Shown in pieces: positions 15,867 through 34,262 of a stretch of DNA of 53,075 nt. The position numbers and the translations under genes were made by a program. The notes under the pieces were generated by a model. The model had not been told where the DNA came from. It searched no databases and worked only from the letters and a program-made list of their open reading frames with translations. The DNA is taken from positions 1-53,075 of the IMG/VR virus record IMGVR_UViG_3300025030_000138. One strand, written 5' to 3'. How positions within the stretch are numbered: the first letter of the stretch is position 1; the number at the start of each line of letters is the position of its first letter. The DNA is from a virus (Duplodnaviria; Caudoviricetes).

Positions 15867-16280
15867 ATGCGGGGTCTACTGCTCGTGGTGTTGCTGGCGG
15901 GGTGCGGGACCGAGGCGGCGACGGCGCCGCCGGAGGGGGGTGGCGGGGCCGGCGGCCTCGGTGGCGCTGGCGGCCAGGGCGGCGCCGGCGGAGGCGGCGG
16001 CGTGGACCCGGGCGCCCCCGTCGGCACCGGGTGCTCCGCGGACGGGGACTGCGACCCGGGCCTCTTCTGCGACAGCGAGAGCCCCGGCGGGTACTGCACG
16101 GTCCTCTGTCCCGACGGGGATTGCCCGGAGGGGAGTGCGTGCTACTCGGTGCGATCCAACACGGACCCGGTGGAGGAGTGCCTCGTTCGCTGCGCCGTCG
16201 ACTTCGATTGCCGGATCGGCTACGTGTGCGGTGGTTCCGATGACAACCCCGTCTGCGTGCCGCGCGACCCGCCCCCCTAG
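15867..16280 (+). CDS. Cys-rich lipoprotein of myxobacterial type, oriented opposite to the late operon
   Basis: MRGLLLVVLLAG/C lipobox; Gly linker; C...DC....C.....GGYCT..C repeats; RBS GGAGGT. Confidence 0.8.
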   Translation: MRGLLLVVLLAGCGTEAATAPPEGGGGAGGLGGAGGQGGAGGGGGVDPGAPVGTGCSADGDCDPGLFCDSESPGGYCTVLCPDGDCPEGSACYSVRSNTDPVEECLVRCAVDFDCRIGYVCGGSDDNPVCVPRDPPP

Positions 16281-18007
16281 AAGTCCTCCACCAGCGGGCG
16301 CTCCCGGATCTGCACGGCGTACAGGATCAGCGTCCGGCAGTTGTAGTTGTAGGTCGATCCCTGCTGCACCTCGCTGACGATCTTCGCTTCGACCTGGATC
16401 TGCGTGTACGGGTTGCTGGCGTGGCGGTCCACCGTGAACGGGCCGATCCACTCGACCGACGAGCCGGAGAGGTCGGCGTCCGGGGTCGTCTCGGGGTAGT
16501 GCGAGTTGTTGCGGTAGAGCGAGCGCGTCTCCGTCGTCGTCTCTCCGCTGACCCTGATCTCCCACTCACACCGCGTCGAAACGTCGTTCGTCCACGTCCA
16601 CGGCGGGCTGTTGCTGTTGTTGCTCTGCCGGTACGCATGGACGAGCGCGACCTTGAGCCACACCTCGATGCTCGTGAGATCGGCGCCGCCGGGCACGAGG
16701 TGGAGCGCCGCGAGGGATCCAGTCGAAGCGAGTCCGTCCGTGCCGAATTCTACGGTGCCGTCGTAGCTGGTCTGGAACCCAAGCACGCCGCAAGCCCACA
16801 CGGTTTCCACGTCCTTGAGCTGCGCAAACGTCCGCACCCGCCAGTCATTCACCAGCATCCGGCGCCGCGTTGACTTCAGATAGATCACGTCCTCGACCAG
16901 CGAGTCCCAGCCGCGGTCCGTCGTGTCCTCCTTGTCCGCGACGATCGCCACGCTGCCGGCCATGCTCTGGGTGTCGTTGCCGCGGTAGGCGGCGGGCACG
17001 GTCTCCGCGCCGGGGAGCCCGAGCTCGGTCGAGAGCCGCGCGTCCTCCCAGCAGTAGACCCCAGCCACCTGGATCCCGCTGCCGCTGATGCCGTCGCCGG
17101 TGGTCTTGATGCAACTCACCGTGAGCTGGTTCACGGCGTCGTCGTTGACGGTGGCGGTGTAGGGACCGTACAGCGCCCAGCTCCCGGTGAGGGCCACCGA
17201 GGTTGCCGCGGCGATCGGGGTGCCGTCCCACGACACCGTGAATGTCCCCGTGTCCTCGACACACCGGGCGTAGATGTAGATCGAGGCGTACTTGACGTAC
17301 TTCTCCACGCGGAAGCGGTAGTCGGCCACGTCCACGGCGCCGAGGGTCTTGTTCCACGGGAGCCCGTAGTAGCGGCTCAGGAGCGTGCTTGACGACTCCT
17401 GCCAGATGTTTGCCTCGTCCAGGATCACCTTCTGGATCAGGTACGAGGACAGCGGCTTGAGGTTGACGCTCGCGGCGTAGCCCTGGCTGAGAGCCTGGAA
17501 GGTGGTCGAGTTCGTCCCCAGGTAGCTGACGCTGTGGTCGTAGTAGACGCACAGCGAGAGCAGGGTCTCGGTGCCGGCGGTGGTCCCGGAGCCGAGCGTG
17601 ATTGTGTACTCGCCGCCGCGCTCGACGTTGACCTCGACCGGAATGTTCGACAGCGCCGCGTCCTCGGTGTCTCCGCCCTCGCTCGTGAACACCAACTTCC
17701 CGGCGCCCGCGGTGCCGGAGCGGGAGCAGACCACCAGCACCTTCAGCTTGCCGATCAGCGACTCGGGGACGCGGAAGCTGCCGACGGCGATCGAGTCGGT
17801 GCCGTTGCCGGTGGCCGTGAACTCCACCGTGAATTGCTCGCCGACCTTGTTCCATTTGTTTGCAGACCAGCCCCCCTCCATGACCTTGCCGCCGTAGAGG
17901 AAGTTGGCGTTCATGGACGCCTCGCGCAACAGGCTCAGTCGCGCGGCGATCCCACTCCCCGCCTTGCTCAACGGGATCGGACTCCAACCTTCGGGGATCG
18001 TCTTCAT
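16277..18007 (-). CDS. Tail protein (putative receptor-binding/tip protein)
   Basis: 576 aa, beta-rich, last gene of the tail block. Confidence 0.6.
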   Translation of the reverse strand: MKTIPEGWSPIPLSKAGSGIAARLSLLREASMNANFLYGGKVMEGGWSANKWNKVGEQFTVEFTATGNGTDSIAVGSFRVPESLIGKLKVLVVCSRSGTAGAGKLVFTSEGGDTEDAALSNIPVEVNVERGGEYTITLGSGTTAGTETLLSLCVYYDHSVSYLGTNSTTFQALSQGYAASVNLKPLSSYLIQKVILDEANIWQESSSTLLSRYYGLPWNKTLGAVDVADYRFRVEKYVKYASIYIYARCVEDTGTFTVSWDGTPIAAATSVALTGSWALYGPYTATVNDDAVNQLTVSCIKTTGDGISGSGIQVAGVYCWEDARLSTELGLPGAETVPAAYRGNDTQSMAGSVAIVADKEDTTDRGWDSLVEDVIYLKSTRRRMLVNDWRVRTFAQLKDVETVWACGVLGFQTSYDGTVEFGTDGLASTGSLAALHLVPGGADLTSIEVWLKVALVHAYRQSNNSNSPPWTWTNDVSTRCEWEIRVSGETTTETRSLYRNNSHYPETTPDADLSGSSVEWIGPFTVDRHASNPYTQIQVEAKIVSEVQQGSTYNYNCRTLILYAVQIRERPLVEDF

Positions 18008-20448
18008 GGCACGTACCTGTGCGGCACGTAGCCACCGAAGGCGAGAGCGTCGTCAGCCATGAAAGCGTAGATGTCCACCTGCTGCACCTCGACCACATCC
18101 GCTGCGTTCGCAAACAGCAGGATGTCGGTGTTCGCTGGCGTGTGCGTCGCCGGCACCACGTCGAGGACGATCGCCGTAGTGGACCCGCCGACGGTGATCG
18201 AGACGATCGTTGCCTGCCCGGAGATCGTTGCGAGGTCCGCGGTCGCCACCTCGATCACGTCGCCCACGGTGAAGTGGGCAACGTCGGTGTCTCCGTCCGC
18301 GGCGTAGCTGTCGTTGTCCACCGTCAGCGTCTTGGTCCCACCCACCCACGCCGTCACCAGGGCGGAGGGAGCGACGTGGCGGAACTGGCCCGAGTGGATC
18401 CCCATCATCAGCAGCAAGAACTCGACCGTGCCGTCCGCGTCGTTGGGCTTCTTCTTCGTGATCACGCCCGGCGCGGCCGTGACCCCGATCGTCCCGTCGG
18501 TCACGTCGGGGATCGCGGTGTTCGTCAGCGTCACCAGGTCGCCGGCCTCCAGCGTGTGCTGGCCCCAGAGAACGGTCACGTCCACGACCGGCGGCGGGCG
18601 CTCGAACCAGGTCTGCCACCAGCCGGTCTGGTCCAGCGCCCAGGCGTCGGCGCCACCACCGCCGGCCAGGCCGGGGAATCGGAGGCCAGCGCCCTCGAAG
18701 GCCGGCCGGTTCGCCCGGGCCCTCATCAGTCCGGAGTCGCGCTCGACGGTGCCGAAGACGCCCTCGTACAGTGCCTGCGCCTCGGTGAACTCGGAGAAGT
18801 TCTCCGTGGCGTGACCCTTCAAGCCGCGATCGTACTTGTAGCGGACGCGGCCAATGACTGCGGCGATGTTGGCGTCGAAGCCGGGGGCCTCGACCAGGTG
18901 CGCGGCCGTGATCGCCGTCGGGGTGTCGAGAGGCATCGGCGGATCGAGCCGCCGGATCGAGTAGAGCCCCTGCAGCTTCGTCACCGGGAACAGCCCCCAG
19001 GGCTGGTAGACCTCCTTCGTCAGAAACTCGCGGAGCTCGAACGGCTCCACGATGACCCCGGCCCCGCGCTGCCCGGGGATCTTGAGGTCGCGCGTCTGCT
19101 CGATCTCGGTCTGATCAAGCCAGGAGATGGGGACGCCCATCCCCCAGGCACGGGGAAGGCTGTCGTAGTTCGTCTGCCCGGCGGTGTAGTTGGTGCCGTT
19201 CGCCACGCCGTTTGTCGTGCTCGTGCTCGTGCCGGTGGAGAGGATCAGTTGCAGGGCGATGTCGATCGGGTGGTCGGAGATCCAGGGCAGGAAGAAGAGC
19301 TCACCCTTCACGTCGACGCTTCCATCGCTCGACCACGCAATCGGCAGCACCTCCTTGACCTCGGTCCCGGCCGAGTGCTGCTCTCGTGGGGTGCCGAAGC
19401 AGCCGCTCTTGATGATCTCCATGGCCCCGGGCGGGTGGCTCGCGGTGGTGAAGGAGACGAGCAGGATCTCGTCCTCCACCTGGACGAAGGTGGCCTTGTC
19501 TCGCCCACGCGCGTCGTTCCACGCGGCGAGCCCGGCGCTGTCCGCGCGGAGCCGCTCGTAGTCCTTCGGCTGCGGCGTGAGCCAGTCCCGATTCGACGCG
19601 AGGTTGTCGTCGCTGCTCTCGACCCCGGTGCCGCCGCCGACGCCCGGGAGTCCGATCCGCAGCGTCGACTTCCACTGCCCGTCAAACAGCTTCTTCTTCT
19701 GCCCGTTCCCGACCCAGCCCGAGACGCGCCGATCGATCGACTCCACCCGCAGCGCGAAGCCGGTCTTCTCCGAGTTCTGTGGGCAGCCGGTGACGATCCC
19801 GATCATGCGGATCACGGAGCCGTCGTCCGTCGCCTGCGCGTCAGCCCACGTCCCGAGGAAGTGGCGGACCGTGGCCTTGCGCTGGCCGAGGAACCGGGGG
19901 TAGTTCGTGACCACCGTGCTTGCGGTGTGCACTGCCGCGGTGCCGCCGTACATGCCGCGGTTGTCGGTGGCGCTGGTGATCGTGAACACGGAGCCGGCGC
20001 GGCTGGCGTAGACGATCGTCTCCCGGCCGACGTAGATGGTGCCGCCGGTGGTCGGGTAGGCGGTTGCGTCGGGCGTCTCGTTGACCGTGAGGCTCGTTGC
20101 CGCCGCGGTCATGGACGACGCGAGCGACAGGGCGTTGTCGGTGCGTCCGACCCCGAGCCCGAGAACGCCGGTCAGCGTGCGATCTAGGTCGAGGATCTCC
20201 AGGGTCATGACGCCGATCGTGGCCGTGGCCGCGAGCACGTCCACGCGCTGATCGAACCCAGCCGGCGGCTTCACGATCCACGGCTTGATCCCGAGCAGCC
20301 GGTCCTTGACGGCGGTGCGTCCGCCGAACACGGTGGCGGTCGCGGACCTGTAGCCGTACGCCCACGGCAGCCCCTCGATCTCCACCCAGGCCGAGACCTC
20401 GATCCGGCGGGCGGCGAGGGCCGTGCTGTAGGCCGCGGGGATCGTCAC
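18004..20448 (-). CDS. Tail tip/baseplate hub-like protein
   Basis: 814 aa; second gene after the tape measure; GTGA coupling. Confidence 0.6.
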   Translation of the reverse strand: MTIPAAYSTALAARRIEVSAWVEIEGLPWAYGYRSATATVFGGRTAVKDRLLGIKPWIVKPPAGFDQRVDVLAATATIGVMTLEILDLDRTLTGVLGLGVGRTDNALSLASSMTAAATSLTVNETPDATAYPTTGGTIYVGRETIVYASRAGSVFTITSATDNRGMYGGTAAVHTASTVVTNYPRFLGQRKATVRHFLGTWADAQATDDGSVIRMIGIVTGCPQNSEKTGFALRVESIDRRVSGWVGNGQKKKLFDGQWKSTLRIGLPGVGGGTGVESSDDNLASNRDWLTPQPKDYERLRADSAGLAAWNDARGRDKATFVQVEDEILLVSFTTASHPPGAMEIIKSGCFGTPREQHSAGTEVKEVLPIAWSSDGSVDVKGELFFLPWISDHPIDIALQLILSTGTSTSTTNGVANGTNYTAGQTNYDSLPRAWGMGVPISWLDQTEIEQTRDLKIPGQRGAGVIVEPFELREFLTKEVYQPWGLFPVTKLQGLYSIRRLDPPMPLDTPTAITAAHLVEAPGFDANIAAVIGRVRYKYDRGLKGHATENFSEFTEAQALYEGVFGTVERDSGLMRARANRPAFEGAGLRFPGLAGGGGADAWALDQTGWWQTWFERPPPVVDVTVLWGQHTLEAGDLVTLTNTAIPDVTDGTIGVTAAPGVITKKKPNDADGTVEFLLLMMGIHSGQFRHVAPSALVTAWVGGTKTLTVDNDSYAADGDTDVAHFTVGDVIEVATADLATISGQATIVSITVGGSTTAIVLDVVPATHTPANTDILLFANAADVVEVQQVDIYAFMADDALAFGGYVPHRYVP

Positions 20449-21179
20449 GACTGGTAGGCTCCGAAGGTGAGGTCGAGCTCGTACAGCGCCGGCTTCGGAA
20501 ACATGCGCACCGGGCGCCAGCGGTTCGCGGGGGCTTCGAGGAAGTAGTCCACGTACGTGCCCAGCGTCTCGCGGTCCTCCCAGTAGCGGAACTTGGTCTT
20601 CGCGGCCGACCACCAGCGCTCGAGCGACTGGTAGACGTAGGCGCCCTCCTCGTCCTGCAGCACCTTCCAGATGTCGACGAAGCGGAAGGCGACCTGCCGG
20701 ATCGTGACCGTCCCGTGCTCCACGAAGAGGTGGTGCCCGTCGAGCGACTTCTGCGCGCCCTGCGTGATCTCCGTGACATCGTAGCTGTCGAACGTCGGGG
20801 CGATGTCCGGGCTCCAGTAGTTCTGCGCCTGGTAGTCGCTGGTGTTGCTGACCGCGAAGTCCGAGGCCCCGGCGGCGACGAAGCCCAGCAGCTCATTGCA
20901 GTCGTTGGCGACGCTCGTCACCTTGATCGAGGTCCCGCTCTGCAGGATCGTCACCTTCCCAGTGGTCGCGGAGATCGTGATCGTGTACGTCCGCGCGTCG
21001 CCGTCAGCCGCCTCCATGGCTGTGTCGAGCGCAGCCAGCAGGGACTCCGGGTCGACGTAGGTGGCGCTGGCGATCGTCGCCGTGTAGTCCGTGACCCCGC
21101 CGTCCAGGCGGAAGCGCAGTTTGTTGTTGGTCGCGTCGATCGTCAGCGGGATCCAGAGGCGAGGGATGGGGCTGCTCAC
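20445..21179 (-). CDS. Distal tail-like protein
   Basis: Directly after the tape measure; beta-rich. Confidence 0.55.
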   Translation of the reverse strand: MSSPIPRLWIPLTIDATNNKLRFRLDGGVTDYTATIASATYVDPESLLAALDTAMEAADGDARTYTITISATTGKVTILQSGTSIKVTSVANDCNELLGFVAAGASDFAVSNTSDYQAQNYWSPDIAPTFDSYDVTEITQGAQKSLDGHHLFVEHGTVTIRQVAFRFVDIWKVLQDEEGAYVYQSLERWWSAAKTKFRYWEDRETLGTYVDYFLEAPANRWRPVRMFPKPALYELDLTFGAYQS

Positions 21180-23425
21180 TTGACCCCCTCGTACAGCTTC
21201 AGCGCCTTGTCGACGGCCTCGCCCACGGCCTCGCCGGTCATGTACGGGCCGACCACGTTGATCGTGACCCGGGGCCCGGCGTTCTCGCTGGCTGCGTTGC
21301 GGGTCGCGGCCTCGCGCCGGCGCTCGTCTCCCTCGGCGGCGCGGCCCTCCGCTCGCTCCTTGCGGCTCCTGGCGTTGTCCTCGAACGCGATCTGCTCCTG
21401 TCCGGAGCGGTTGCGGCCGGAAGAGATGGACGAGGCCGCGGCCCCGGCCGTGACGGCGACGCCCGCGAGGAGCCCGGCGGCGGCGAAGTGGCCGGCGGCA
21501 GCGCCCTGCATGCCCGGGGTCGCGGCGGCGGCGATCCCGAGGGCCGTCTCCACGATCGCCCGGGTGCCGGCCTCGGCCGCCATCGAAGCGAGGACGGCGG
21601 CGAGGCGCTCGCTCTCTGCGGCCTTGGTGTCCTTGGCCGTCAGCACCTCGGCCTTGCGGCGCAGTTCGAGCTCGCGGCGCTTGATCGCTGCGATCTTGTT
21701 GTCGCGCTCGGCCGAGGTCGTGGCCGCGTCTCGCTCCTTCTGGAGCTGCGCGATCTGGGAGTCGGACGCCGCGAGCCGGTCCTCGTAGCCCTGGATCGTC
21801 AACTCGGTGGCGTAGCGGTTCTCGGTCAGGCTCTCCTGGATCGCCTGCGACAGAGCCCCGAGCGCGGCGCTTGCGACCATGGACCCGGCCTCTGCTGCGG
21901 CGCCGATCGCACCGAAGGCGGCGGCACCCTCGGTGCCCATGTCCATGAACTCCTGCTTCAGCTTCTCGATCTCGCCGCTGGTCTGCCCGGTGGCGGCGAG
22001 CAGCGAGTCCAGCGCCGAGGTGTCGAAGGTGGCGAGGGTCGCGTCGTTCTTGCCCTGCTGCTGCTCACCGGCGGCGACACCTCGGGCGACACCGGCAGCG
22101 AGGGTGTCCGCCTGCATGGCCTTCCACTGCTCGCGGCGGCGGATCTCCTGGGCGAGGGACTGGTCGTGCAACTCGTTCTGGAACTTGACCCGCTCGACCT
22201 CCTTTTGGAGGAGCGCGGCTTCGGTGGCGTCCAGCTTCTCGTGTCGGGCAATCTCTGCGCGCTGGAGTGCCTCCATCTCGGAGGCCCTGGCCTTGGCTGC
22301 GGCGGCGGCTTTCTGGTACGACGCGAACGATTCCTCGGCCGCGTTGAGCCGAGCGGCTGCTTCCTCTCGGTCGAGCTCTGCGGTCTTGTTCTCGCGGGCC
22401 CTGGCCTTGATGCGCGTGTACGTCTCTTCCGCCGTTCCGAGGCGCCCGATCGCGGCGGCCTCCTCAGCGCGCAGGCCGATCAGCTTTCGCGCCACGTCGG
22501 AGAGGGAGCCGCTCTGTGCTATGACCTTGGCGCGCTCCTCTTGGATCCTGGCGAGATTCTCCAACTCGACCCGGTAGTCAGTCTTGCTGCCGCCGACGGC
22601 GGCCTCCCGGGCGACCTGCTCATCGCCCTTCCCCTCGCGCGCAACCTGCTGCTTGGCGATCAGAGCGTCGAGGGTGGCTTCTGCCTTGGTTGCGTAGGTG
22701 TGGATGTCTCCGAGCGCGGTCTTGAACCCGGAGGCAAAATCTCCGCCTGCGATCGCTGCGGCATCGGACGCGGCCCGGCCCATGCCGACGATCTGCTGAG
22801 AGGTAAGGCCAGCTTCCTTGCCGGCCACAACGAGAGCCTGGACGGTTGCAATGTCGAGGTCCCCGGCGTACCCGCGGAATGCCTGCGCGCTGGCAACAAC
22901 CTCGGCACGAGTCACGCCGAACGTGCGGGTGAGAACCTGGAACTGTGCTTCCAGCGCCCGCACGTTCTTGACGTGCGAAACCAACTCACTGATCGCAAAG
23001 CCGGCCGCAGCAACAGCACCGCCGAGCACAAGACCTGCCCCGCCCGCAGCGCCGAATGCCCTTGTCGCCGCACCGCCGAATTGCACAACCGAACCAACCG
23101 CGCCGCTCGTGTCGACCCCGAGGGCAGACATCAACCCGCCGAGCTTGCTGATCGTCTCCCCGCCGCGCTTGGCGGAGGTCTGCATCTCATTGAGTCCGTC
23201 AGCGGCCTCCTTGCCAACCTTTGCGGCCTCCTTGCTGGCCTTTGCGGCCTCACGTGCGGCCTCCCTGTTCACCCTCTCGGCATCCCTGCTGGACGCCCCG
23301 AGCTCCTTGCTCGACTTCACCAGCGCGGCCTCGGCCGCCTTCGTCTCCGCCAGCGCCTTCTGCGACGCCTCCGCGCCGACGACGTTGATCCCGAAGGTGT
23401 AGTTCGTGTCGCTCTGCTCAGCCAC
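21176..23425 (-). CDS. Tail tape measure protein
   Basis: 749 aa, Ala-rich helical with hydrophobic stretches; follows the chaperone pair. Confidence 0.85.
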   Translation of the reverse strand: MAEQSDTNYTFGINVVGAEASQKALAETKAAEAALVKSSKELGASSRDAERVNREAAREAAKASKEAAKVGKEAADGLNEMQTSAKRGGETISKLGGLMSALGVDTSGAVGSVVQFGGAATRAFGAAGGAGLVLGGAVAAAGFAISELVSHVKNVRALEAQFQVLTRTFGVTRAEVVASAQAFRGYAGDLDIATVQALVVAGKEAGLTSQQIVGMGRAASDAAAIAGGDFASGFKTALGDIHTYATKAEATLDALIAKQQVAREGKGDEQVAREAAVGGSKTDYRVELENLARIQEERAKVIAQSGSLSDVARKLIGLRAEEAAAIGRLGTAEETYTRIKARARENKTAELDREEAAARLNAAEESFASYQKAAAAAKARASEMEALQRAEIARHEKLDATEAALLQKEVERVKFQNELHDQSLAQEIRRREQWKAMQADTLAAGVARGVAAGEQQQGKNDATLATFDTSALDSLLAATGQTSGEIEKLKQEFMDMGTEGAAAFGAIGAAAEAGSMVASAALGALSQAIQESLTENRYATELTIQGYEDRLAASDSQIAQLQKERDAATTSAERDNKIAAIKRRELELRRKAEVLTAKDTKAAESERLAAVLASMAAEAGTRAIVETALGIAAAATPGMQGAAAGHFAAAGLLAGVAVTAGAAASSISSGRNRSGQEQIAFEDNARSRKERAEGRAAEGDERRREAATRNAASENAGPRVTINVVGPYMTGEAVGEAVDKALKLYEGVK

Positions 23426-23428
23426 GCG

Positions 23429-23815
23429 CTACCTCCTTCGCCCCAGCACCTGCTGCAGTTGGCGCTTCCGCTCGCCTTCGGCCTCGTGCTTCTTCCGCTC
23501 CGTGTTCTGCCGCCGCAGGTACTCGCCCCGCAAGAACGCCAGGGCGGCGGCGAGCTTCGACGGCCAGAGCCGACTGTCTGCGCCGGGGGGCGCACCCATC
23601 TCCGTGGCCGACAGGTACATGTCGAGGATCCCGTACGCCCACGACGACACATCGAGCCGCGGGCAGCGCAGGCGCTTCGGATCGTCGCGGCCCTCGTAGT
23701 AGCCGGGCGGGTACTCCCACGAGATCGGAGACTCCGCCGGCTGCGAGTGGCCGAGGGCCACGCGCATCGGCGGCTCGCACTCGGAGCAAACGAACTCGTC
23801 AGCCGGCAGCCACAC
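23429..23815 (-). CDS. Tail assembly chaperone T-like ORF (probable frameshift extension)
   Basis: Overlaps the chaperone 3' end in the +1 frame; precedes the tape measure. Confidence 0.65.
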   Translation of the reverse strand: MWLPADEFVCSECEPPMRVALGHSQPAESPISWEYPPGYYEGRDDPKRLRCPRLDVSSWAYGILDMYLSATEMGAPPGADSRLWPSKLAAALAFLRGEYLRRQNTERKKHEAEGERKRQLQQVLGRRR

Positions 23816-24404
23816 CAGCGCCAGGAAGGGACCTCCGCTCGGCCGCGGAGAGGGACTGCTCTGCGGTCACGCGGTCGGCGAGCACGTCGAGGAGCGTGAC
23901 CTCGAAGAAGATGGGCTCACCCTTCCGCCACTTCGGCGCCCCGCCGGATGCGAGCGGCCCGTCCGACTGCGCGAGCACGGACTCGCCCTTCTTCCAGAGC
24001 GGGGCACCATCCTCTCCTGCGGGACCGTCCTCCGTCGCCGGCACCGTGGCCCGGCGAACGAGGGTGCGCTCATAGCGGTCGAGCACGTCGTCGCGCAGCA
24101 CCTGGAACTTCTCGCCGCAGAACGACGACTCCACGGTGTCGCACGGGATCTGCTTCCCGCTCTGCGACACCAGGCACTCGTGCTTGGCGATCCCCCAGCG
24201 CACGATCTCGCGGTTGTGCTGGCGCCCCTTGACGACGTGATCGCCGTCCCGCTTCTCGGCCGCGTGGTGATCCACGGCCTTGGCGGTGAGTTCATCCAGC
24301 TTGCCGCGCGGAATCGGGCGAACGTGGAACACGGTGCGCACCGGGCCCGGGTCCTCGGGGAGCGAGAACGGTTCGGTTTCCTCGGCGCTGTAGCCGGTCA
24401 GCAT
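23799..24404 (-). CDS. Tail assembly chaperone G-like
   Basis: Between tail tube and tape measure; RBS GGAGA before ATG. Confidence 0.7.
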   Translation of the reverse strand: MLTGYSAEETEPFSLPEDPGPVRTVFHVRPIPRGKLDELTAKAVDHHAAEKRDGDHVVKGRQHNREIVRWGIAKHECLVSQSGKQIPCDTVESSFCGEKFQVLRDDVLDRYERTLVRRATVPATEDGPAGEDGAPLWKKGESVLAQSDGPLASGGAPKWRKGEPIFFEVTLLDVLADRVTAEQSLSAAERRSLPGAGVAAG

Positions 24405-24441
24405 GATGTCTCCAGGGTTGGGGTTGAGCGGGCTGCGAGAG

Positions 24442-24572
24442 AGACCCGAGCGGGAGTCGAACCCGCCTCCACCGGACTGGCTTGCCGGTGCTCGTTGCCC
24501 GGGGCCGCGTGTCCACCCAGGCGCCTGGGCTTTCGCGCGGCATGTCTCCAGGCGTCGCTGAGCTATCGGGCC
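24442..24572 (-). ncRNA. tRNA-like RNA, 131 nt, with a 66-nt D-loop insertion; nominal anticodon GCC; no encoded CCA
   Basis: Acceptor GGCCCGA/TCGGGTC, U8-A9, D stem GCTC/GAGC, anticodon stem CCGG/CCGG, T arm GCGGG-TTCGACT-CCCGC, all at canonical spacing. Confidence 0.8.
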
Positions 24573-24579
24573 GGAAGGG

Positions 24580-25737
24580 CTAGCCAATCGCCAGGTTCAC
24601 CGGGGCGAATGTGGTCGCGGCGGGCTGGAGCGCGCGAATCGTCAGCGTCATCCAGTCCTGCCCCTCCACCTCCTCGGCCGGGGGCGGGACCACGATCTGG
24701 CAGTTGGGCGCGTAGACGGCGACCATGTTTCCGAGTCCGCCGTCGAGGAAGGTGAAGATCGGGAACGTGGTCTTGGCCTGGTACGCGGTGAGGTATGCCT
24801 CGTCGCGCTGCACCTTGACGGAGAAGATCCGCGACTGACCGACGACCTTCCACCCGCTGCGACCCTGAGCCCCGCCGTTCGACGGGATCGGCTTGCGGTC
24901 GTTGCCGAGATCGAACGACAGCTCGGCGCACTCGGTCGCGGTGCCGTTGTAGTAGAAGGGCGCGCGCCGAGTGACGACGGCGGACGGGTAGGCGTCGGTC
25001 GTGGCCGCCAGCGAGCCCTTGGCGCTGGCGAAGTCGGGGTCGTCGATCAGGTAGTCGAACGCGAGGAGCGGCACCTTGCGCGCGGACAGGCTCTCGATCT
25101 TCACGTTGCCGATGCAACCGAGACACGTGATCTCGTAGCCGTTGTCGCCCTTCATGCACAGGGCCTCGTAGCCGAAGCCGGAGGACGCCGCGCGGTAGTT
25201 CGCCATCGCGTAGCAGACATCGGTGTTCGCAGGCGTCCCGCTCCACGCAGGAGCCACGGTGAGCGTGGAGCCCACTTTGACGGTGACGGCGCGCGCCTCG
25301 TAGACCCCGGCGGACGCGAGCCGGTAGATGATGTCTCCCACGTTGATGGTCGTCGCCACGGCCACGTCCCCGCTCGTGGTGGTCCACCCCGCGGAGAACG
25401 TGGTCCCGGTGCCGAGGTTGACGGCGCCGAACTGCGCGAGGAGCGAGAGCCCCATCTCGCCGTGGATCGCTGCGACGGTCGAAGCAGCGGCGGTGCCGGA
25501 GCCGCGAAGCTCCGTCTTGAAGCTGAAGGCTCCACCCTCCGCGCCGGGGATGATCCCGCTGCTGTCGAAGGTGTCGTCCTGCAGCTCGCGCTCGATGGGC
25601 TCGCCGAAGTCGGGAGCCGGAGAGAAGTCGCGCGCGTGGACGAAGCGGTAGTCGGAGCCGTCCGCGTCGGGGTCCGTCGCCCAGGTCGACTGCGTGGCGA
25701 CGTAGAGCGACTTGATCCTGGAGATTCCGACGGCCAT
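24580..25737 (-). CDS. Major tail tube protein
   Basis: 385 aa; FSFKTELRGSG and LSFDLGND motifs; position; no sheath gene seen. Confidence 0.8.
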   Translation of the reverse strand: MAVGISRIKSLYVATQSTWATDPDADGSDYRFVHARDFSPAPDFGEPIERELQDDTFDSSGIIPGAEGGAFSFKTELRGSGTAAASTVAAIHGEMGLSLLAQFGAVNLGTGTTFSAGWTTTSGDVAVATTINVGDIIYRLASAGVYEARAVTVKVGSTLTVAPAWSGTPANTDVCYAMANYRAASSGFGYEALCMKGDNGYEITCLGCIGNVKIESLSARKVPLLAFDYLIDDPDFASAKGSLAATTDAYPSAVVTRRAPFYYNGTATECAELSFDLGNDRKPIPSNGGAQGRSGWKVVGQSRIFSVKVQRDEAYLTAYQAKTTFPIFTFLDGGLGNMVAVYAPNCQIVVPPPAEEVEGQDWMTLTIRALQPAATTFAPVNLAIG

Positions 25738-25794
25738 GGGCGTTCCCTCGCGGCCCGAGCGGGGCCGAAGACGTTGGGTTGGTTGGGTGGCTCG

Positions 25795-26265
25795 CTACGT
25801 GGTGGCGAGCTGGTAGAGGACCGTGAAGGAGAGGACCATCGTGCGCACGTCCGGGTGCGCGTGGTTGCGCTTGAAGCTCGCGCCTCGGGCGAGGACGAGG
25901 CGGACGCCGGTCGGGTTTCCGGTGAGGTTGGCGAGCCGGTTCTCGATCGCCTCTGCGTCTCGGCCCATGCGCGCGTCGAGCTCCGCGCGCGAGAGGCTGA
26001 CCATGTACATCACTTCAATCTCGAACCCCTGCTCCACCTGGCGGCTGCTGGCGCCGAAGGTCTCGGCCTCTCGCCGGCTCGTGAGCCGGATCTCGAACTG
26101 GCGGTCATGCCCCCGGTAGATCGTGGACCCGTTGGGCTCGAACGTCTCAAGCGGCGTGGCGCGCACGAACGAGGCATCCACTGGTGCGGTGGCAACAGGT
26201 GGCGTCGTCGCCGCGACCTGGGTGGCGATCCAGGTGATCACGTCGGCGACGTTGGTGTTCGCCAT
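25795..26265 (-). CDS. Tail terminator/completion-like protein
   Basis: Size and position before the tail tube. Confidence 0.55.
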   Translation of the reverse strand: MANTNVADVITWIATQVAATTPPVATAPVDASFVRATPLETFEPNGSTIYRGHDRQFEIRLTSRREAETFGASSRQVEQGFEIEVMYMVSLSRAELDARMGRDAEAIENRLANLTGNPTGVRLVLARGASFKRNHAHPDVRTMVLSFTVLYQLATT

Positions 26266-26738
26266 CAGCGCCCCCGGGTCTTGCGCACGAGCGCGTCCAT
26301 GAAGTTGTTGCCGATGGTGCCGAGTTCCAAGCGCTCGCCCGGCTGGCGGATGCCGAAGAACTTGCGGCCGGAGAGCCCGGTCCGCGTGACCGACTCCAGC
26401 CCGCGAGCGATGTCGACAAGGTGCGAGTCCAGCCACCCGACCTCGGCCCGGTTGCCGGCGTTGGCGATCTCCATGAGCCCGGACATCAACTCGCCAGACC
26501 ACCAGAGCCGCGGTGTGCCTCCGTGCATCAGCCCCGCCTTCTTCCGCTTCAAGGCGTAGGGCTTGGTGTACTTGCGGAACTTCTCGTGGTTGAGATCCCC
26601 GCGGCCCGTGCGCACGCGGTTGACGATGATCCCGACCACCCCAGCCGCCAGGTCCGACAGCAGCCCAGACACCGCCACGCCGTCGAGGTCGGGCGGGATC
26701 CAGTTCTTGTCTACCTTCAGGGTGGAGACGACTTCCAC
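26265..26738 (-). CDS. Virion morphogenesis / tail completion protein
   Basis: R...G.D....F..Y...Y...K, L..SGELM, RKFFGI motifs. Confidence 0.7.
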   Translation of the reverse strand: MEVVSTLKVDKNWIPPDLDGVAVSGLLSDLAAGVVGIIVNRVRTGRGDLNHEKFRKYTKPYALKRKKAGLMHGGTPRLWWSGELMSGLMEIANAGNRAEVGWLDSHLVDIARGLESVTRTGLSGRKFFGIRQPGERLELGTIGNNFMDALVRKTRGR

Positions 26739-26770
26739 GGGCGCCTCCGAGGTGGCTGGTTGCGGCAGGG

Positions 26771-27244
26771 CTACGGCTCGTCGTTGCGCCGAACGATCGG
26801 GGCGATGTTCTCGTCCTCGCCCTCGTCGTCGTCGGACAGAGACAGGCGCTTGATGTGCGAGCCCACGCCCTCGGAGTTGGTCGGCAGCACGTCGGAGAGG
26901 TAGCGCTCCGGCTTCTCCTCCAACTTCTCGATCCGGCGCTGGTACTCCTCCCAGTCTGCGTCGGCGCCGGGGGATGCGGCCTGGAGCAGGCCGGATTTGG
27001 CGACGAACCAGTGCGCGGCGAGCTCCACTGTGGTCCGCAAGAACTCGTACGCCTCGGTCCCGGAGACGAGATCCGCCGGCGTGATCCCCTGCGCCCGGAC
27101 GATCGCGTTCACCTCGGTCGAGGCGTCGGCGATGATCAGCGCCACGTTCGCCGCCGTGGGCTTGGTCGTGGTCGAGAACGCAGCGGCGTCCGGCCAGAAC
27201 TTCGCCCGGACGAGCTCGGCGGTGATCCCGTAGACCTGGGCCAC
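26771..27244 (-). CDS. Head-tail adaptor (Mu gp36-like)
   Basis: IADASTEVNAIV helical pattern; position after the capsid gene. Confidence 0.6.
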   Translation of the reverse strand: MAQVYGITAELVRAKFWPDAAAFSTTTKPTAANVALIIADASTEVNAIVRAQGITPADLVSGTEAYEFLRTTVELAAHWFVAKSGLLQAASPGADADWEEYQRRIEKLEEKPERYLSDVLPTNSEGVGSHIKRLSLSDDDEGEDENIAPIVRRNDEP

Positions 27245-27247
27245 GAC

Positions 27248-27592
27248 CTACCTCCGGCCGCGGTTCGGCCTGTGCTGCTGCTGCGGGATGAACTCGCGGT
27301 GCGGGGCCACTGCGGGGGCCTGCTGCGGGGTGATCGAGAGCGCGGCGGCAGGCTCTGCGGCCGGGGCGGGTATGAGGTCCGCCGCCTCACGGAGCGCCTG
27401 CTGCGTTGCCTCCGCGCCGGCGACGGCGATCTCTGCCTCCACCGCCACCCGTACGATCCGCTTGGCTCGGATGTGCAGGTCGAGGTTGGCCCACTTGGCG
27501 GCCTCGGGCACGTCGTCGCCGGGGGCGTAGCGCCGGCCGGTGTTGCCGACGAGCGAGGACCGCGGCCCGCAGACGTATCGGAACTGAGACAC
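27248..27592 (-). CDS. Hypothetical head-associated protein
   Basis: RBS GGAGGT plus GTG; between capsid and adaptor. Confidence 0.6.
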   Translation of the reverse strand: MSQFRYVCGPRSSLVGNTGRRYAPGDDVPEAAKWANLDLHIRAKRIVRVAVEAEIAVAGAEATQQALREAADLIPAPAAEPAAALSITPQQAPAVAPHREFIPQQQHRPNRGRR

Positions 27593-27651
27593 GTGAGACC
27601 TCCGGAAGCGCAGCGGGGCCGCTGTCACGAGCCGGCCCCGCGCGAAGTGGG

Positions 27652-28626
27652 CTACTGGACGACGAGGGAGAAGAAGACGCCCAGGCTGGAGGCGATGATC
27701 TTGTGCTGCACCGCCACGATCCCGTCCACCCGGTCGCTGCGGCGGCTGCGGATCTCGTACTTGTCGAGGAGCGCCCCGCCCTTCGCGTCGGAGTACGGCT
27801 TCCAGGCGAAGGTGTACATAGCCGAGGGCGTCCGCTTCCCGGGCTTCTCCGGGACGTGCATCAGCAGCGCGGACTTGCCGTAGAGGAAGGCGGTGGTCTG
27901 CGATGCCTGCCCCTCCTTCGAGGTGGTGGAGACGGCCCTGGCGGTGACGACGCGCTTGAGCTTGAACGTCCGCGCCAGATCCTCGTTGGTCGGGGTCCGG
28001 TTGGTGTCGTTCGGCATCCGGTCCCGCACGTCGGGCGAGGAGTAGAGCGCGCGCTCCACGTCCGGGCCCATGACCATGATGTTCGGGCGGTAGCCGGTCA
28101 GGCTCTCGACGTAGTTGCACTGCCGCAGCACCGCGTCGACCGGGGTGGAGCCGGCCGAGCCCCAGTACACGGTGGTGGTGTCGGCCTCGGCGGTGGCGTG
28201 GCCGGTGATGTCGCGGCCCCAGATCGAGGTCGCGAACGCCGCGGTCTTGAAGAGGACCTCGCACTTGAGGGCCATCTTGTGCGCGACGAACTCGGCGGCG
28301 TCGTTGTCCTCGTCCAGCACCGCGTCCTGGTTGCTGCGGCTCAGCCACGAGATGTCCTTGTGGTAGCCGTATGGCACGCACTGGAACGTGTCGGTGGAGA
28401 GCCGGTAGCCGCCGCCGGCCGACTCCGCGCCCTCGGCGAGGACCTCGGCGTCGTCGCGGAGCCAGTCCTCCTTGTTGAAGACGTAGTAGCTGTCACTCAT
28501 CTTCGGGGTGAGGATGAGCGGGGACGCCTGGTGGGCGACGAACTTCTCCGGGTCCTGCATGTACGCGACCGCGGTATCGGTCAGCGGCTGGTTGATGTGT
28601 CCGGATGCGAGCGTGGGGTTTGCCAT
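27652..28626 (-). CDS. Major capsid protein
   Basis: 324 aa; HINQPLTDTAVAY, RPNIMVMG, PSAMYTFAW; position. Confidence 0.9.
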   Translation of the reverse strand: MANPTLASGHINQPLTDTAVAYMQDPEKFVAHQASPLILTPKMSDSYYVFNKEDWLRDDAEVLAEGAESAGGGYRLSTDTFQCVPYGYHKDISWLSRSNQDAVLDEDNDAAEFVAHKMALKCEVLFKTAAFATSIWGRDITGHATAEADTTTVYWGSAGSTPVDAVLRQCNYVESLTGYRPNIMVMGPDVERALYSSPDVRDRMPNDTNRTPTNEDLARTFKLKRVVTARAVSTTSKEGQASQTTAFLYGKSALLMHVPEKPGKRTPSAMYTFAWKPYSDAKGGALLDKYEIRSRRSDRVDGIVAVQHKIIASSLGVFFSLVVQ

Positions 28627-28729
28627 TGCGAGCTACCTTTCTGGTGCCCGCAATGCGGGCGAAAGTGAAACGGCGCCAGAGTCGCGAGACCCGGACGCCG
28701 GTGGGGAGGATGGGTGTGTCGGGGTGAGG

Positions 28730-29452
28730 CTACTGGTAGAACATCGTGATCGTGGCCTCGCCCTGGCTGAACTGGGTCGAGCCGGAGACCTCGATGTCGA
28801 TTGCGTCCGTGGCGGTGAAGTCGCCCCCGGCGGTGACGGCGGTGGACTCCACGGTCTCACCGCGGGTGTCCTGGTTGTCGGTGGTGAGGGTGAGGACACC
28901 GCCGGTCACGTCCACGGTGGCGATCTCGGCGTTGATCGCGCAGCCCTTGCCGCCGGTGCTCGCCACCACGTCGACGCTCGAGGTGAACTTCACGATCCGC
29001 CCCGGGAAGCCCATCACGATGCCGGTGCGAACGTTGCCGTCCACGGAGAGGCCGGCCAGGGTGCCCTGGTAGACGACCATCGTGCGCACGGGCCGCGCCT
29101 TCCCCGCAGGGACGAGGAACACGCTGGCGATGTCGTTGGCCACGCCGTCGACCAGCGCCCGCGCCACGACCGGGTGCCAGGTGGCGACGATCAGCTTGCC
29201 GGCAGCGTCGACGCCGAGCGAGTCGCCCGCGTTGACGGTGCCGCCGAGCTTGGCCTTGCTGCGGCCGAGGCACATGATCGCCGCGTTCTCGGCGTCCTCG
29301 GGGTCGTTCTGCAAGATGCCGAATGCCTCCGCGCCGAGGCCGGCGAGGGCGGCCCTGCCGTTGCCGTCGACGGTGACGGCGTAGTACTGCGAGGACGAGA
29401 GGTCGCCCTCGGCCTCCAGGGAGGTGACGAGGATCGGGGTCTCGGTTGCCAT
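28730..29452 (-). CDS. Capsid cement/decoration protein (DUF2190-like) with a C-terminal extension
   Basis: DLSSSQYYAV...GILQNDP...G.SKAKLGGTVNAGD.L..DAAGK. Confidence 0.75.
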   Translation of the reverse strand: MATETPILVTSLEAEGDLSSSQYYAVTVDGNGRAALAGLGAEAFGILQNDPEDAENAAIMCLGRSKAKLGGTVNAGDSLGVDAAGKLIVATWHPVVARALVDGVANDIASVFLVPAGKARPVRTMVVYQGTLAGLSVDGNVRTGIVMGFPGRIVKFTSSVDVVASTGGKGCAINAEIATVDVTGGVLTLTTDNQDTRGETVESTAVTAGGDFTATDAIDIEVSGSTQFSQGEATITMFYQ

Positions 29453-29541
29453 TTCGGAGCCTTTCGGACGCACGACGGCGCCCATGCGGCGAGCGGTGGC
29501 TCGTCGCGAAGTGGTTGCGTTGGGTGCTGCGGTGCGGCGGG

Positions 29542-30732
29542 CTAGTTGAGCTCGCCCTCGGTGTCGTCCACGTCGTCCACGGACCCGCGCCGAGCCTGGT
29601 AGGCCTCGGCGTAGAGCCTCGCGTACCCGGGATCCCTCTGCGCCAGGACCGCGGCCTTGGCCGGGGTCAGGGTCGGGTCCTTCTCGCGGAGCGCGATCAC
29701 CTTCGCGGCGGTGAACGCCTTGAGCTGCGCGCGCGCCGAGGTGCCACCGCCGGGGACCGCCGAGGCCGAGCGGCCGCGCTCGGTCATGGGCACGACCTCG
29801 GGAGCTGCGGCGCCGAAGCACTTGGAGAAGCCGTCGGCGCCCATGGCGTCGTACGCCTTGAGCAGCGAGTCGCGCGCGGCCGCGGGCGCCTTGCCGGCGG
29901 CGATCGCGGCGTCGACCGCGGCCTCGGCCTCGCCCTTCTTCGCGGCGTCCTCCGCGGCCTTGATGGTCTCCTTCGCCTTCCCGAGATCCTCGGAGAGCTT
30001 CAGGATCTGCGCGTCCTTCGAGTCGCGGGCCGCGGTCAGGACCACGACCTCGGCCTTGGCGCGGGTGAGCTCCACGTCGGCCGCGGCTGCCTTGCCGGCG
30101 GTCTCGGCGAGGAGGGCGGCGGTCTTGGCGTGGTCCGCAGCCATCTTCTCGTGCTCCGCGAGGGTGATCGTCTTCGGTGCGTCCATGGTGTTCTCCTGTC
30201 TCAGCGCGACGGTTGAGGCGGGGACGATCCCCACCGCGTTCATGTCCGGGATCGCCGGACGATTCGTGAGGGCGACGGCCTGCAGCACTGCGGAGAGCGT
30301 GTCTCCGCTCGTCGGGTCGAGAACGTCGAACCCGATCTCGGGCGAACACAGGTCGTACTCCTCGGCCTCGGCGTACTGCAGCGCGCGAGGCGTCGGCTTG
30401 ATGTACGCGAACAGGGCCGGGGCCCCGGCTTCGTTCGTCTCGATCTTGAGGCCGATCACACGGCCGGCGCTCTTGCCGTCCTCGGCGTTCTGCGGCGAGT
30501 AGGTCCCGTGGTTGTAGTCAGCGGGGACGCGGCGCGCGTACGCCTTGAAGTTGGCCAGCAGCGTGTCTGCGAGCTCCGCGGAGAACTCGATCTTCCCGTA
30601 CCGCGAGTCGTGCACGGTCGCGCCGATGGGTGCAATCTGGAGACGCAGCAGCTTGGTGTCTGGGGCGAGCCCGAAAGACACGTCCGCCGTCACGACCCGC
30701 ACTGGGGTCGCTGCGAGGATCCAGGGGTGCAT
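29542..30732 (-). CDS. Mu gpI-like prohead protease with nested scaffold (internal start at 30186)
   Basis: DYNH, CSPEI, AVALTNRPAI; internal CAGGAGAACACCATG before a coiled-coil half. Confidence 0.85.
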   Translation of the reverse strand: MHPWILAATPVRVVTADVSFGLAPDTKLLRLQIAPIGATVHDSRYGKIEFSAELADTLLANFKAYARRVPADYNHGTYSPQNAEDGKSAGRVIGLKIETNEAGAPALFAYIKPTPRALQYAEAEEYDLCSPEIGFDVLDPTSGDTLSAVLQAVALTNRPAIPDMNAVGIVPASTVALRQENTMDAPKTITLAEHEKMAADHAKTAALLAETAGKAAAADVELTRAKAEVVVLTAARDSKDAQILKLSEDLGKAKETIKAAEDAAKKGEAEAAVDAAIAAGKAPAAARDSLLKAYDAMGADGFSKCFGAAAPEVVPMTERGRSASAVPGGGTSARAQLKAFTAAKVIALREKDPTLTPAKAAVLAQRDPGYARLYAEAYQARRGSVDDVDDTEGELN

Positions 30733-30735
30733 GGG

Positions 30736-31002
30736 CTACTCCGGCTTCTTGCAGTCGGTCGCGTTCGGGTTGTCGCTCCGACACACGAGGTAGAGGTTGA
30801 ACGAGTCGATCAGCCTCGCTCGCTCCAGCTTCGCGATCCGCTCCTCGTGCTGCTCCGAGGTGGCCTGCACGTCGGCGAAGGATGCGGACGCGCGGCCGGC
30901 CATGAACAGGGCCCCGGCCGAGAGCAGGATCGCAGCCCCGGCGGCGGTGACGATCCGCCACGAGGGGGCCTCAGCAACGGCGAGGAGAGCGTCCTTGCTC
31001 AC
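30736..31002 (-). CDS. Small membrane-anchored or secreted protein
   Basis: TM IVTAAGAAILLSAGALFM, short coiled coil, two C-terminal Cys. Confidence 0.6.
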   Translation of the reverse strand: MSKDALLAVAEAPSWRIVTAAGAAILLSAGALFMAGRASASFADVQATSEQHEERIAKLERARLIDSFNLYLVCRSDNPNATDCKKPE

Positions 31003-31451
31003 GGGACCTCCACTGGAGCGCCACACCCGGGCGGCTCGTGGCCAGCGATCACGACCTCGGGGCATGTCACGCCACCACTAGGCCGCCCGTGCTTGCTCAT
31101 GGGCACGACCGTCAGCGCCAGGCCGCCCCGCGACAGCGACGCGCACAAGACATCGCGGGCGGTGCCGGGCACTCCGTCGAACCCGGCCGGCAGCGCGGCC
31201 CCGCCCCCGCCCTCGGCCTCCGGCGCCGCCACGATCTCCACGTACTGCGTGGTCAGCGTCCCGGACTCGCAGTCGATCCCGTTCTCGCTCAGAGCCTGCG
31301 CCGCCTCGCATGGCCCCTGAGCCAGGGCGACGAAGCACTCGCCACCAACCAGGGCCGCGGGGACCTCTCCGGTGGCGAGCCACACAGCGACCGCGCCACC
31401 GGCTGCGGCGAGGGCGGCGGCGGCGACTGCAGCGGAGGAGCGGTGGTTCAT
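30999..31451 (-). CDS. Membrane-anchored or secreted Cys-containing protein
   Basis: N-terminal hydrophobic helix; six Cys. Confidence 0.6.
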   Translation of the reverse strand: MNHRSSAAVAAAALAAAGGAVAVWLATGEVPAALVGGECFVALAQGPCEAAQALSENGIDCESGTLTTQYVEIVAAPEAEGGGGAALPAGFDGVPGTARDVLCASLSRGGLALTVVPMSKHGRPSGGVTCPEVVIAGHEPPGCGAPVEVP

Positions 31452-31735
31452 GCGTTCACCGCCTCGCCGTTGCGGATCCACCCGTGCCACCCGGCGGCGC
31501 CCTTGGCGTTGACCGAGGGCGAGAGCGAGAGCGTCTCGATCGTGTCCCCGGTGCGCACCCACCAGTGACACGCCACCGGGTAACCCTGGCCCTCGCCCTT
31601 CGGCCCGCCGTCGAGCGGGTTCTCGAAGGGGACGGCGATGTAGTCGTTCTGGTGGTTCGGGTTCAGGAAGAGCACGCCCATCCCGTCGCGGCCGTTCTCC
31701 GAGTAGAACTTCGCGTCCAGGTCTGTGAGCCTCAC
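31448..31735 (-). CDS. DUF6527-like protein
   Basis: W.RTGDTIETLSLSPSV.......WHGWIRNG. Confidence 0.6.
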   Translation of the reverse strand: MRLTDLDAKFYSENGRDGMGVLFLNPNHQNDYIAVPFENPLDGGPKGEGQGYPVACHWWVRTGDTIETLSLSPSVNAKGAAGWHGWIRNGEAVNA

Positions 31736-34250: not shown

Positions 34251-34262
34251 GGTCGGGGGCTC

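Follow-up and report, generated by a model that had tools for sequence, protein, structure and literature searches.

The Caudoviricetes record IMGVR_UViG_3300025030_000138 of IMG/VR, a stretch of 53,075 bp from groundwater metagenomes (about 70% G+C, estimated to be 57% complete) that was analysed over its whole length and is called here the window, carries a 131-nt tRNA-like element on its minus strand (24442..24572). Its sequence and minimum-energy fold give a cloverleaf that resembles tRNA-Gly(GCC), except that the D loop is enlarged and folded into a long hairpin and that the anticodon-like loop lacks standard decoding features. The element lies between a tail tube gene and a probable tail assembly chaperone gene. 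We propose, with slightly less than even credence, that it may be a tRNA-derived, non-decoding element that works in cis to direct the processing and stability of the mRNA. By sequence it stands alone; by architecture it is a member of a recurrent, unannotated set of viral tRNA(-like) genes, and this set is a more surprising result than the element itself.

Architecture of the element

The tube gene ends with the stop codon TAG at 24582-24580, followed by CCCTTCC (24579-24573, 7 nt) and by G1 of the element at 24572. All the parts described here are read on the minus strand. The acceptor stem (24572-24566, GGCCCGA, with 24449-24443, TCGGGTC) forms 7/7 pairs, one of which is G2·U71, and is followed by U8 and A9 (24565-24564). 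The D arm (24490..24563) has a stem with 4/4 pairs (GCTC, 24563-24560, with GAGC, 24493-24490) that encloses a D loop of 66 nt (24559-24494) beginning with A14 and G15. Within this loop, a GC-rich hairpin of 57 nt (24553..24497) is built of three tiers, GCCTGG/CCGGGC, GCCGCG/CGCGGC and GCCCAG/CTGGGT, with GCGC as apical loop. Position 26, between the D stem and the anticodon-like arm, is an A. The arm itself (24488-24472) reads CCGGC / AAGCCAG / TCCGG, and combines a C31·U39 mismatch with A32, A33 and GCC at positions 34-36. In tRNAs, positions 32 and 33 of this loop are a pyrimidine and a near-universal U. In the minimum-energy fold, the arm shows a 6-nt loop and a bulged U instead of a 7-nt loop. 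A variable loop of 5 nt (TGGAG) leads to the T arm (24466-24450; GCGGG / TTCGACT / CCCGC), which has 5/5 pairs and the canonical T54, T55, C56, R57 and A58. The discriminator is a U (24442), the bacterial glycine type. CTC comes next, so CCA is not encoded.

Overall, 20/21 stem pairs of the cloverleaf are intact and the changes sit in two loops. The four arms, the 7-bp acceptor and a T loop of the form TTCRANY are those of a tRNA. U33 and a D loop of about 7-11 nt with G18G19 are absent, their places being taken by A33 (with C31·U39 in the stem) and by the 66-nt loop. The one GG available as G18G19 is part of the insert's basal helix and is paired in the minimum-energy fold; the D loop that is left after removal of the hairpin, AGCGAC+AAC, is devoid of G18G19. 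The original prediction had described a complete cloverleaf 7 nt past the tube stop, with intact acceptor, D and T stems, U8, A14, a TTCGACT loop and a discriminator U, a D loop (24494-24559) forming a nested hairpin, and a non-canonical anticodon loop (C31-U39, AAGCCAG, A33) without encoded CCA. The observation is real and is confirmed in every detail. Its description as a tRNA-shaped element combining intact stems with altered decoding features is equally supported.

As had been anticipated, the element escapes standard scanners. ARAGORN in its default mode, which also covers tmRNA, called 0 genes in the window, and Rfam returned 0 matches at the gathering score. At E <= 10 over 24300-24700, five Rfam matches were obtained, the best being tRNA-Sec with 18.3 bits against a cut-off of 47 and a span of only 24442-24514; the tRNA model RF00005 did not match even at this threshold. 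Removal of the insert yields a tRNA-Gly(gcc) call. In an in-silico grid of D-loop deletions run through ARAGORN (segments of 40-79 nt from 22 starts, 880 variants), 220/880 variants were called, of which 140 as tRNA-Gly(gcc) with ends at 24572 and 24442. The identical 880-variant grid gave 0 calls on 39 random segments of the window.

The minimum-energy fold of the whole element (-66 kcal/mol) gives the acceptor, anticodon and T arms together with the three-tier hairpin. Its stability corresponds to z = -1.74, with 10/200 shuffles folding equally well; for the 66-nt D loop, the values are -33.7 kcal/mol and z = -2.65, with 4/200 shuffles equal. Since these energies are modest relative to shuffles, the case for a real feature rests on tRNA-specific architecture and not on energy. 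Chance resemblance in GC-rich intergenic DNA, which readily makes helices, would account for such z-scores. It does not account for the 220/880 calls set against none in 39 control segments, nor for the fact that a 7/7 acceptor, the canonical TAGCTCAG at the start and a T arm reading GGTTCGACTCC are found together at tRNA spacing. We regard it as effectively refuted and its remaining probability as negligible.

Elsewhere in the window, a loose T-loop-like motif has 13 matches, the T arm of the element being one of them, with no other tRNA called. The element is the sole tRNA-like sequence in the 53 kb, and comparing the window with itself revealed no second copy. A direct repeat of 11 nt, CCTGGAGACAT, occurs at the 5' edge of the D-loop hairpin (24552-24542) and over the ribosome-binding site (RBS) of the next gene (24416-24406). 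As a duplication scar it is not significant, repeats of at least 11 nt being present in 7% of same-sized window segments. Contigs with the identical sequence were found in four DNA runs from three studies, two of these runs being possible sources of this very DNA; no variant without the insert, and no joints, occurred in the four runs.

Several known identities were considered and rejected. The original prediction had offered an intron-bearing tRNA as one possibility, and this is not supported for any known form of intron. For an archaeal-type spliced tRNA, a bulge-helix-bulge motif (3-nt bulge, 4-bp helix, 3-nt bulge) is missing, with 0 in 156 nt and at least one in 76% of 200 shuffles. For a group I intron or a self-cleaving ribozyme, Rfam gave no match at E <= 10 over 24300-24700; the insert measures 57-66 nt, far below the size of a group I core, which is about 200 nt or more. 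tmRNA was called neither by ARAGORN (0 with -m, 0 by default) nor by Rfam. A mimic of the YrlA or bacterial Y RNA type is not among the five Rfam matches, and the ends of the element form an acceptor stem; those of Y RNAs form a long Ro-binding stem. Two other parses were discarded: the tRNA-Ala(cgc) with a 43-nt 'intron' proposed by ARAGORN -i is forced (mismatched D stem, 16-nt variable region), and a tRNA-Arg(ccg) parse obtained after partial deletion has broken stems. Finally, 120 tRNAs with the same acceptor ends were found in bacterial genomes of unrelated phyla (Asp 76, Arg 32, Lys 11, Gly 0), and the acceptor-stem match is uninformative about the host. The bacterial glycine identity pairs are C2:G71 and G3:C70. 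The element has G2·U71 and C3-G70, which together with A33 makes a working glycine tRNA unlikely.

Viral tRNA(-like) genes with D-loop hairpins

Two pattern scans were run on viral contigs. The first one selected tRNAs with 80-110 extra bases between the start of the D loop and the T arm. At least 6/7 acceptor pairs were present in 26/120 candidate spans, and the insert lies in the D loop in 2/26. One of these D-loop-insert elements, L034, was not recognised by the Rfam tRNA model. Most of the genes carry the insert in their anticodon loop; these are recognised by the Rfam tRNA model, which spans the full length of those that were run. Such anticodon-loop inserts, of about 50-75 nt and with perfect acceptor stems, are found in L119, L040, L117, L012, L010, L088, L054, L028, L072, L075, L068, L038 and L030 among others; several share short motifs, e.g., ...TAACAGC....

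The second, narrow pattern (TAGCTCAG, 40-70 nt, GAGC, 24-28 nt, GGTTCGANTCC) identified 93 loci. By our calculation, about 1% of matches would be expected to show at least 6/7 acceptor pairs by chance, versus 49/92 scored matches observed. From these 49, we dropped 12 with a second AGCTCA (a 5' tRNA fragment ahead of a complete tRNA) and 12 more whose D arm closes ahead of the insert, leaving 25 elements, 23 of which are distinct. Loci where a 5' fragment (acceptor strand plus TAGCTCAG) stands 40-70 nt upstream of a full copy of the same tRNA (L298, L271, L269, L261, L326, L324, L294, L262, L253, L251, L250) look like scars of recombination or integration.

The 25 viral elements carry D-loop hairpins of 40-68 nt, each insert being an irregular hairpin. 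With the element of the window included, ARAGORN called 0/26 intact and 26/26 after deletion of the insert. At least 6/7 acceptor pairs, a D stem around a foldable insert of 40-70 nt, a canonical T arm and a deletion-dependent call are common to the element and to all 25. A GG is kept in the D-loop flank (5', 3' or both) in 25/25, which places each of these inserts in one or the other variable pocket of the D loop; in the element, the corresponding GG takes part in the basal helix of the minimum-energy fold. No bulge-helix-bulge was found in 17/25 elements, about as in shuffles, and Rfam placed no ribozyme or family other than tRNA on the inserts of these loci.

Standard spacing and a standard anticodon arm are seen in 17/25 (e.g., Ile GAU, Leu GAG, Lys UUU, Phe GAA and a CUA suppressor), which probably decode. 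The other eight (L255, L259, L278, L282, L296, L307, L316, L323) have shortened or odd arms with loops of 4-8 nt, closed by a UUCG tetraloop in L255 and by a GNRA tetraloop in L282. Such arms cannot decode. In five of these eight loci, ARAGORN found no other tRNA.

One of the 25 (L257) is identical to positions 21170-21300 of NC_047983.1, the genome of the cultured Lactobacillus phage Lb (L337 4001-4131). It is an unannotated tRNA-Ile(GAU)-like sequence of about 130 nt, with a D-loop hairpin of about 55 nt, located between a DUF722 gene and the terminase genes, upstream of terS. A scan for further members of its family returned only two already known. RNAalifold on four members (the phage Lb element, L274, L286 and L322) predicts 36 pairs; for 13 of them, both partners have changed without loss of pairing, and these include 4/7 in the basal and 2/7 in the apical stem of the insert. 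Covariation in four sequences is only suggestive of selection on the structure of the insert. The genomic contexts vary, with L321 in a replication module and L282 between terminase and portal genes, on the strand opposite to both. The L282 element (3708-3819, (+)) is on a viral contig of 64% G+C and had no match in phages by blastn.

Compared with this set, the element of the window has the same architecture and the same invisibility to scanners, but not the same sequence; it keeps the standard spacing of 26 nt and has a spoiled loop. Given this loop and the paired G18G19 candidate, it would be a non-decoding or degraded member of the set. The claim of an undescribed system has to be qualified. 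The element is a singleton in sequence, and full-text searches of the literature, limited to main texts (Table S6 of the Lak phage preprint, on introns, may bear on insert positions), found no description of D-loop insertions in phage tRNAs, the nearest report being that of introns in Lak phages; in kind, the element is one case of a recurrent phage set. More generally, it is possible, if doubtful, that phages carry widespread undescribed tRNA(-like) genes with a functional hairpin in the D-loop variable pockets, some of which decode while others, like the element, do not, and that the one described here was co-opted for punctuation or stability of a tail operon.

Tail-operon context and possible function

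The gene that precedes the element (24580..25737, (-)) encodes a 385-aa protein whose AlphaFold2 model, built from 10 sequences (pLDDT 76), resembles in Foldseek the tail tube proteins pb6 of T5 and that of P74-26 (E 1e-8 to 2e-6, TM about 0.5). By sequence, the protein has one weak match to a PHROG tail family and no Pfam family. PDB sequence searches with the tube profile and with the 201-aa product of the next gene gave nothing significant. This downstream gene (23799..24404, (-); RBS GGAGA at 24413-24409, ATG at 24404) is probably a tail assembly chaperone gene. It is overlapped by a 128-aa frame (23429-23815), and a 749-aa gene follows (21176-23425), as in the usual layout of chaperone and tape-measure genes; neither Pfam nor PHROG gave a match for the 201-aa, 128-aa and 749-aa products. 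The tube model on one side and this layout on the other agree with the tail-operon location assigned in the original prediction. The element is in the sense direction, 37 nt upstream of the next start and within a run of same-strand genes that comprises, upstream, terminase, Mu-type portal, protease, scaffold and candidate capsid genes. No sigma-70-like promoter was found in 16000-35000, and the simplest reading is that the element belongs to the late transcript.

The tube protein was used to find related junctions. As a single query it had no match in phages (tblastn) or in viral contigs. A search at the protein level retrieved 11 relatives besides the window's own protein, the closer ones (P0002-P0007) at 41-52% identity, and alignment-based scans retrieved L002 in viral contigs, L003-L005 in metagenome contigs and none in genome contigs. 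The tube-chaperone junction is readable in L002 and L003 only. In L003 (tube 44% identical), a 52-nt spacer contains a plain hairpin, GCGCGGC-UUCG-GCCGCGC, followed by an RBS and the homologous gene; in L002 (31% identical), there is no spacer. Neither locus has a tRNA. The element takes the place of the plain hairpin that L003 has at the same junction. The N-terminus MLTG of the 201-aa protein is kept in the L003 homologue, which argues against a longer open frame, one that extends through the element, as the actual gene; 24405-24579 is accordingly intergenic and non-coding.

A U-less GC hairpin (GCGGGGCC...GGCCCCGC) also stands directly after the stop of the window's capsid gene, at the start of the 27245-27651 gap (-). 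A stable structure behind an abundant structural gene therefore seems to be a local habit. An RBS and a GTG come next in this gap, making a small unannotated gene probable there; a second long gap between gene calls, of 666 nt, is found at 31066-31731 (-). Neither is the D-loop hairpin of the element an intrinsic terminator, since it is followed by AACGAGCACC without a U tract; none of the six terminator-like sites in 16000-35000 is at this locus.

From this organisation, we tentatively favour a role in cis. The element would be transcribed within the late tail operon and act on the polycistronic message that contains it. In tRNAs, the acceptor/T-arm half is the part recognised by RNase P, by RNase Z and by the CCA-adding enzyme. 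The corresponding half of the element may offer host tRNA-end enzymes two cut sites, 24573/24572 for RNase P and the 3' side of 24442 for RNase Z or an enzyme of that kind. The fold, compact and very stable, would shield whichever message end keeps the element. In this way, the level of tube mRNA, for a protein needed in hundreds of copies, could be uncoupled from that of the downstream mRNA for chaperone and tape measure. All that goes beyond the structure, cleavage and stabilisation alike, is inference. In favour of this role, the decoding features are lost and the stems survive, where even-handed decay would be expected to break stems too. The element is placed exactly where tube and chaperone expression should diverge, and hairpins are found both at the same junction in L003 and after the window's own capsid gene. 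In addition, the 25-member set, with its 8/25 non-decoding arms and its four-member family with double changes, is consistent with such a function.

Several results weigh against a role in cis. Searches of phage records and viral contigs yielded no homologue of the element (24405-24580 by blastn against phages, 23700-25800 by megablast against phage records, and an exact 24-nt T-arm-plus-acceptor pattern in viral contigs, 0 matches), which makes a covariation test of the element impossible. Its absence from the L002 and L003 junctions indicates that it is lineage-specific and dispensable for such a tail module. The stability of the fold is just modestly above that of shuffles, and the flank GG kept by all the others and paired here also fits a degraded copy. 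The varied contexts of L321, L282 and phage Lb indicate that the set as a whole is not a tail-operon device. Finally, an RNase P cut just after the tube stop would deprive the tube message of its 3' structure, which speaks against simple protection of the tube mRNA unless only the 3' cut occurs.

Alternatively, the element could be the relic of a phage tRNA-Gly-like gene that already had the D-loop hairpin and is now decaying; it would then lack any function of its own, the hairpin being at most an ordinary stabiliser after the tube gene. The non-canonical anticodon loop, the pairing of the candidate G18G19, unlike in 25/25 others with a flank GG, the absence from both relatives with a readable junction and the lack of any other tRNA-like sequence in 53 kb are all in line with decay, as are the mixed identity signals given by an acceptor sequence of Asp, Arg and Lys tRNAs (Gly 0/120). 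Decay fits less well with 20/21 stem pairs and a full T loop remaining intact, with changes confined to two loops, or with the compactness of phage genomes, in which a 175-nt spacer would otherwise be without explanation; the sequence is also identical in contigs of the four runs and three studies, with the reservation made above for two of them. We consider a relic rather unlikely. The same contrast between an intact acceptor and T arm and lost decoding features could instead reflect a trans-acting mimic, cut from the late transcript, maybe CCA-tailed, and titrating a host or defence factor that reads the acceptor/T-arm half, while the hairpin and the spoiled anticodon would bar the RNA from translation. 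The non-decoding arms with UUCG or GNRA tetraloops among 8/25 viral elements look selected, not decayed, and nucleases reading the top half of tRNAs exist: in the available part of its description, Cas12a3 is a defence nuclease that reads the acceptor stem, the T arm and the CCA tail (PMC12851939). For the element, however, both the release of the RNA and its partner are purely hypothetical, a single copy in a late operon comes late for counter-defence, and no hint of such a defence or partner was seen in the window. We hold a mimic to be unlikely.

An interrupted but working tRNA, with an insert that is removed or tolerated and a product decoding glycine GGC/GGU, would explain the tRNA-Gly(gcc) call obtained upon removal of the insert; in nine genes of the phage, moreover, GGC accounts for 58% of the 471 glycine codons. 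The standard anticodon arms of 17/25 other D-loop-insert elements, the 'enigmatic introns' mentioned for Lak phage tRNAs in the available part of a preprint (10.1101/356790) and the 2H phosphoesterase / 2'-5' RNA ligase-like domain of the window's portal point in the same direction. They are opposed by A33 in place of the near-universal U33, by A32 and C31·U39, by the lack of a bulge-helix-bulge and of any Rfam ribozyme or intron match, by a D loop without G18G19 once the hairpin is removed, and by an acceptor with G2·U71 and C3-G70 instead of the glycine pairs, so that this explanation appears highly improbable.

Two upstream genes deserve mention in their own right. The 1002-aa Mu-type portal (34263-37271, (-)) contains the 2H phosphoesterase / 2'-5' RNA ligase-like domain at residues ~550-654 (Pfam PF13563, E = 6e-14, plus PHROG 'RNA ligase' families). 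It is unusual for a portal to be fused to an enzyme acting on RNA ends or cyclic nucleotides, and any link with the element would be hypothetical. The terminase large subunit (38544-39911, (-)) is closest to those of the Methanothermobacter phages psiM2 and psiM100 (52% identity), with Gordonia phages next (44%). Neither the base composition nor the protein charge points to a Methanothermobacter-type host, and the charge is not haloarchaeal.

Significance and comparison with known systems

The invisibility of all 26 elements to ARAGORN, together with the unannotated RefSeq copy in phage Lb, implies that phage tRNA inventories are undercounted. If the D-loop hairpins are functional, they could serve a phage or host protein as a handle, block defence nucleases directed at tRNAs or mark the insert for removal by an unknown bacterial splicing route. 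Should the hairpin be removed, bacteria or phages would own a tRNA splicing route relying neither on the archaeal/eukaryotic endonuclease nor on group I introns. Should it be kept, there would be tRNAs or mimics bearing an additional arm at the elbow, and the way they meet the ribosome, RNase P and defence nucleases directed at tRNAs would be altered. In the phage of the window, the element is a testable case of tRNA-style punctuation of an operon, at a place where tube and chaperone expression must differ, and the set is testable in the cultured phage Lb.

With canonical tRNAs (RF00005), the element shares the 7-bp acceptor, U8, A14, the 4-bp D stem, the 5-bp T stem with TTCGACT, a variable loop of 5 nt and an anticodon arm of 17 nt that has GCC at positions 34-36. 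It differs from them by the 57-nt hairpin in a 66-nt D loop, the lack of an unpaired G18G19, A33, C31·U39 and scores below all thresholds. Like the hairpins that act as 3' stabilisers or attenuators after major structural genes, it is positioned directly after the tube stop, as in L003 and after the window's own capsid gene; unlike them, it has a complete tRNA-like scaffold around the hairpin, with no U tract. Mitochondrial tRNA punctuation and mascRNA-type elements are cut by RNase P and RNase Z. As in these processing signals, a tRNA shape with a non-decoding anticodon arm is found here between functional units of a longer transcript. The Rfam mascRNA-menRNA model gives 13.3 bits on the element, against a cut-off of 42.5, and we know of no bacterial or phage tRNA-like processing signal with a D-loop hairpin.

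The element is also like the D-loop-hairpin set itself (phage Lb, NC_047983 21170-21300; L274, L286, L282, L255), through the acceptor, the GCTC...GAGC D stem, the hairpin and the T arm. The insert of the element has no sequence similarity to theirs, its GG is only in the basal helix, and the genomic contexts are others. As described in the available part of the preprint by Devoto et al. (10.1101/356790), Lak megaphages encode up to 35 putative tRNAs per genome, some with short 'enigmatic introns' found with tRNAscan in eukaryote mode. From this mode of detection, and not from a statement in the source, we infer that the Lak inserts lie in the anticodon loop, and the anticodon-loop-insert viral tRNAs of our first scan resemble them. 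Both the Lak genes, as reported there, and the element are phage tRNA(-like) genes with short inserts of unexplained removal that bacterial-mode scanners miss; the element has its insert in the D loop and is alone and non-decoding, in contrast to genomes with many tRNAs. Non-canonical archaeal tRNA introns, which according to the available part of PMC3241643 include D-loop positions in Crenarchaea, likewise place an insert in a tRNA gene away from position 37/38. The element differs from these by the absence of a bulge-helix-bulge and by its discriminator U, and at least one member of the set that it belongs to resides in a phage of bacteria.

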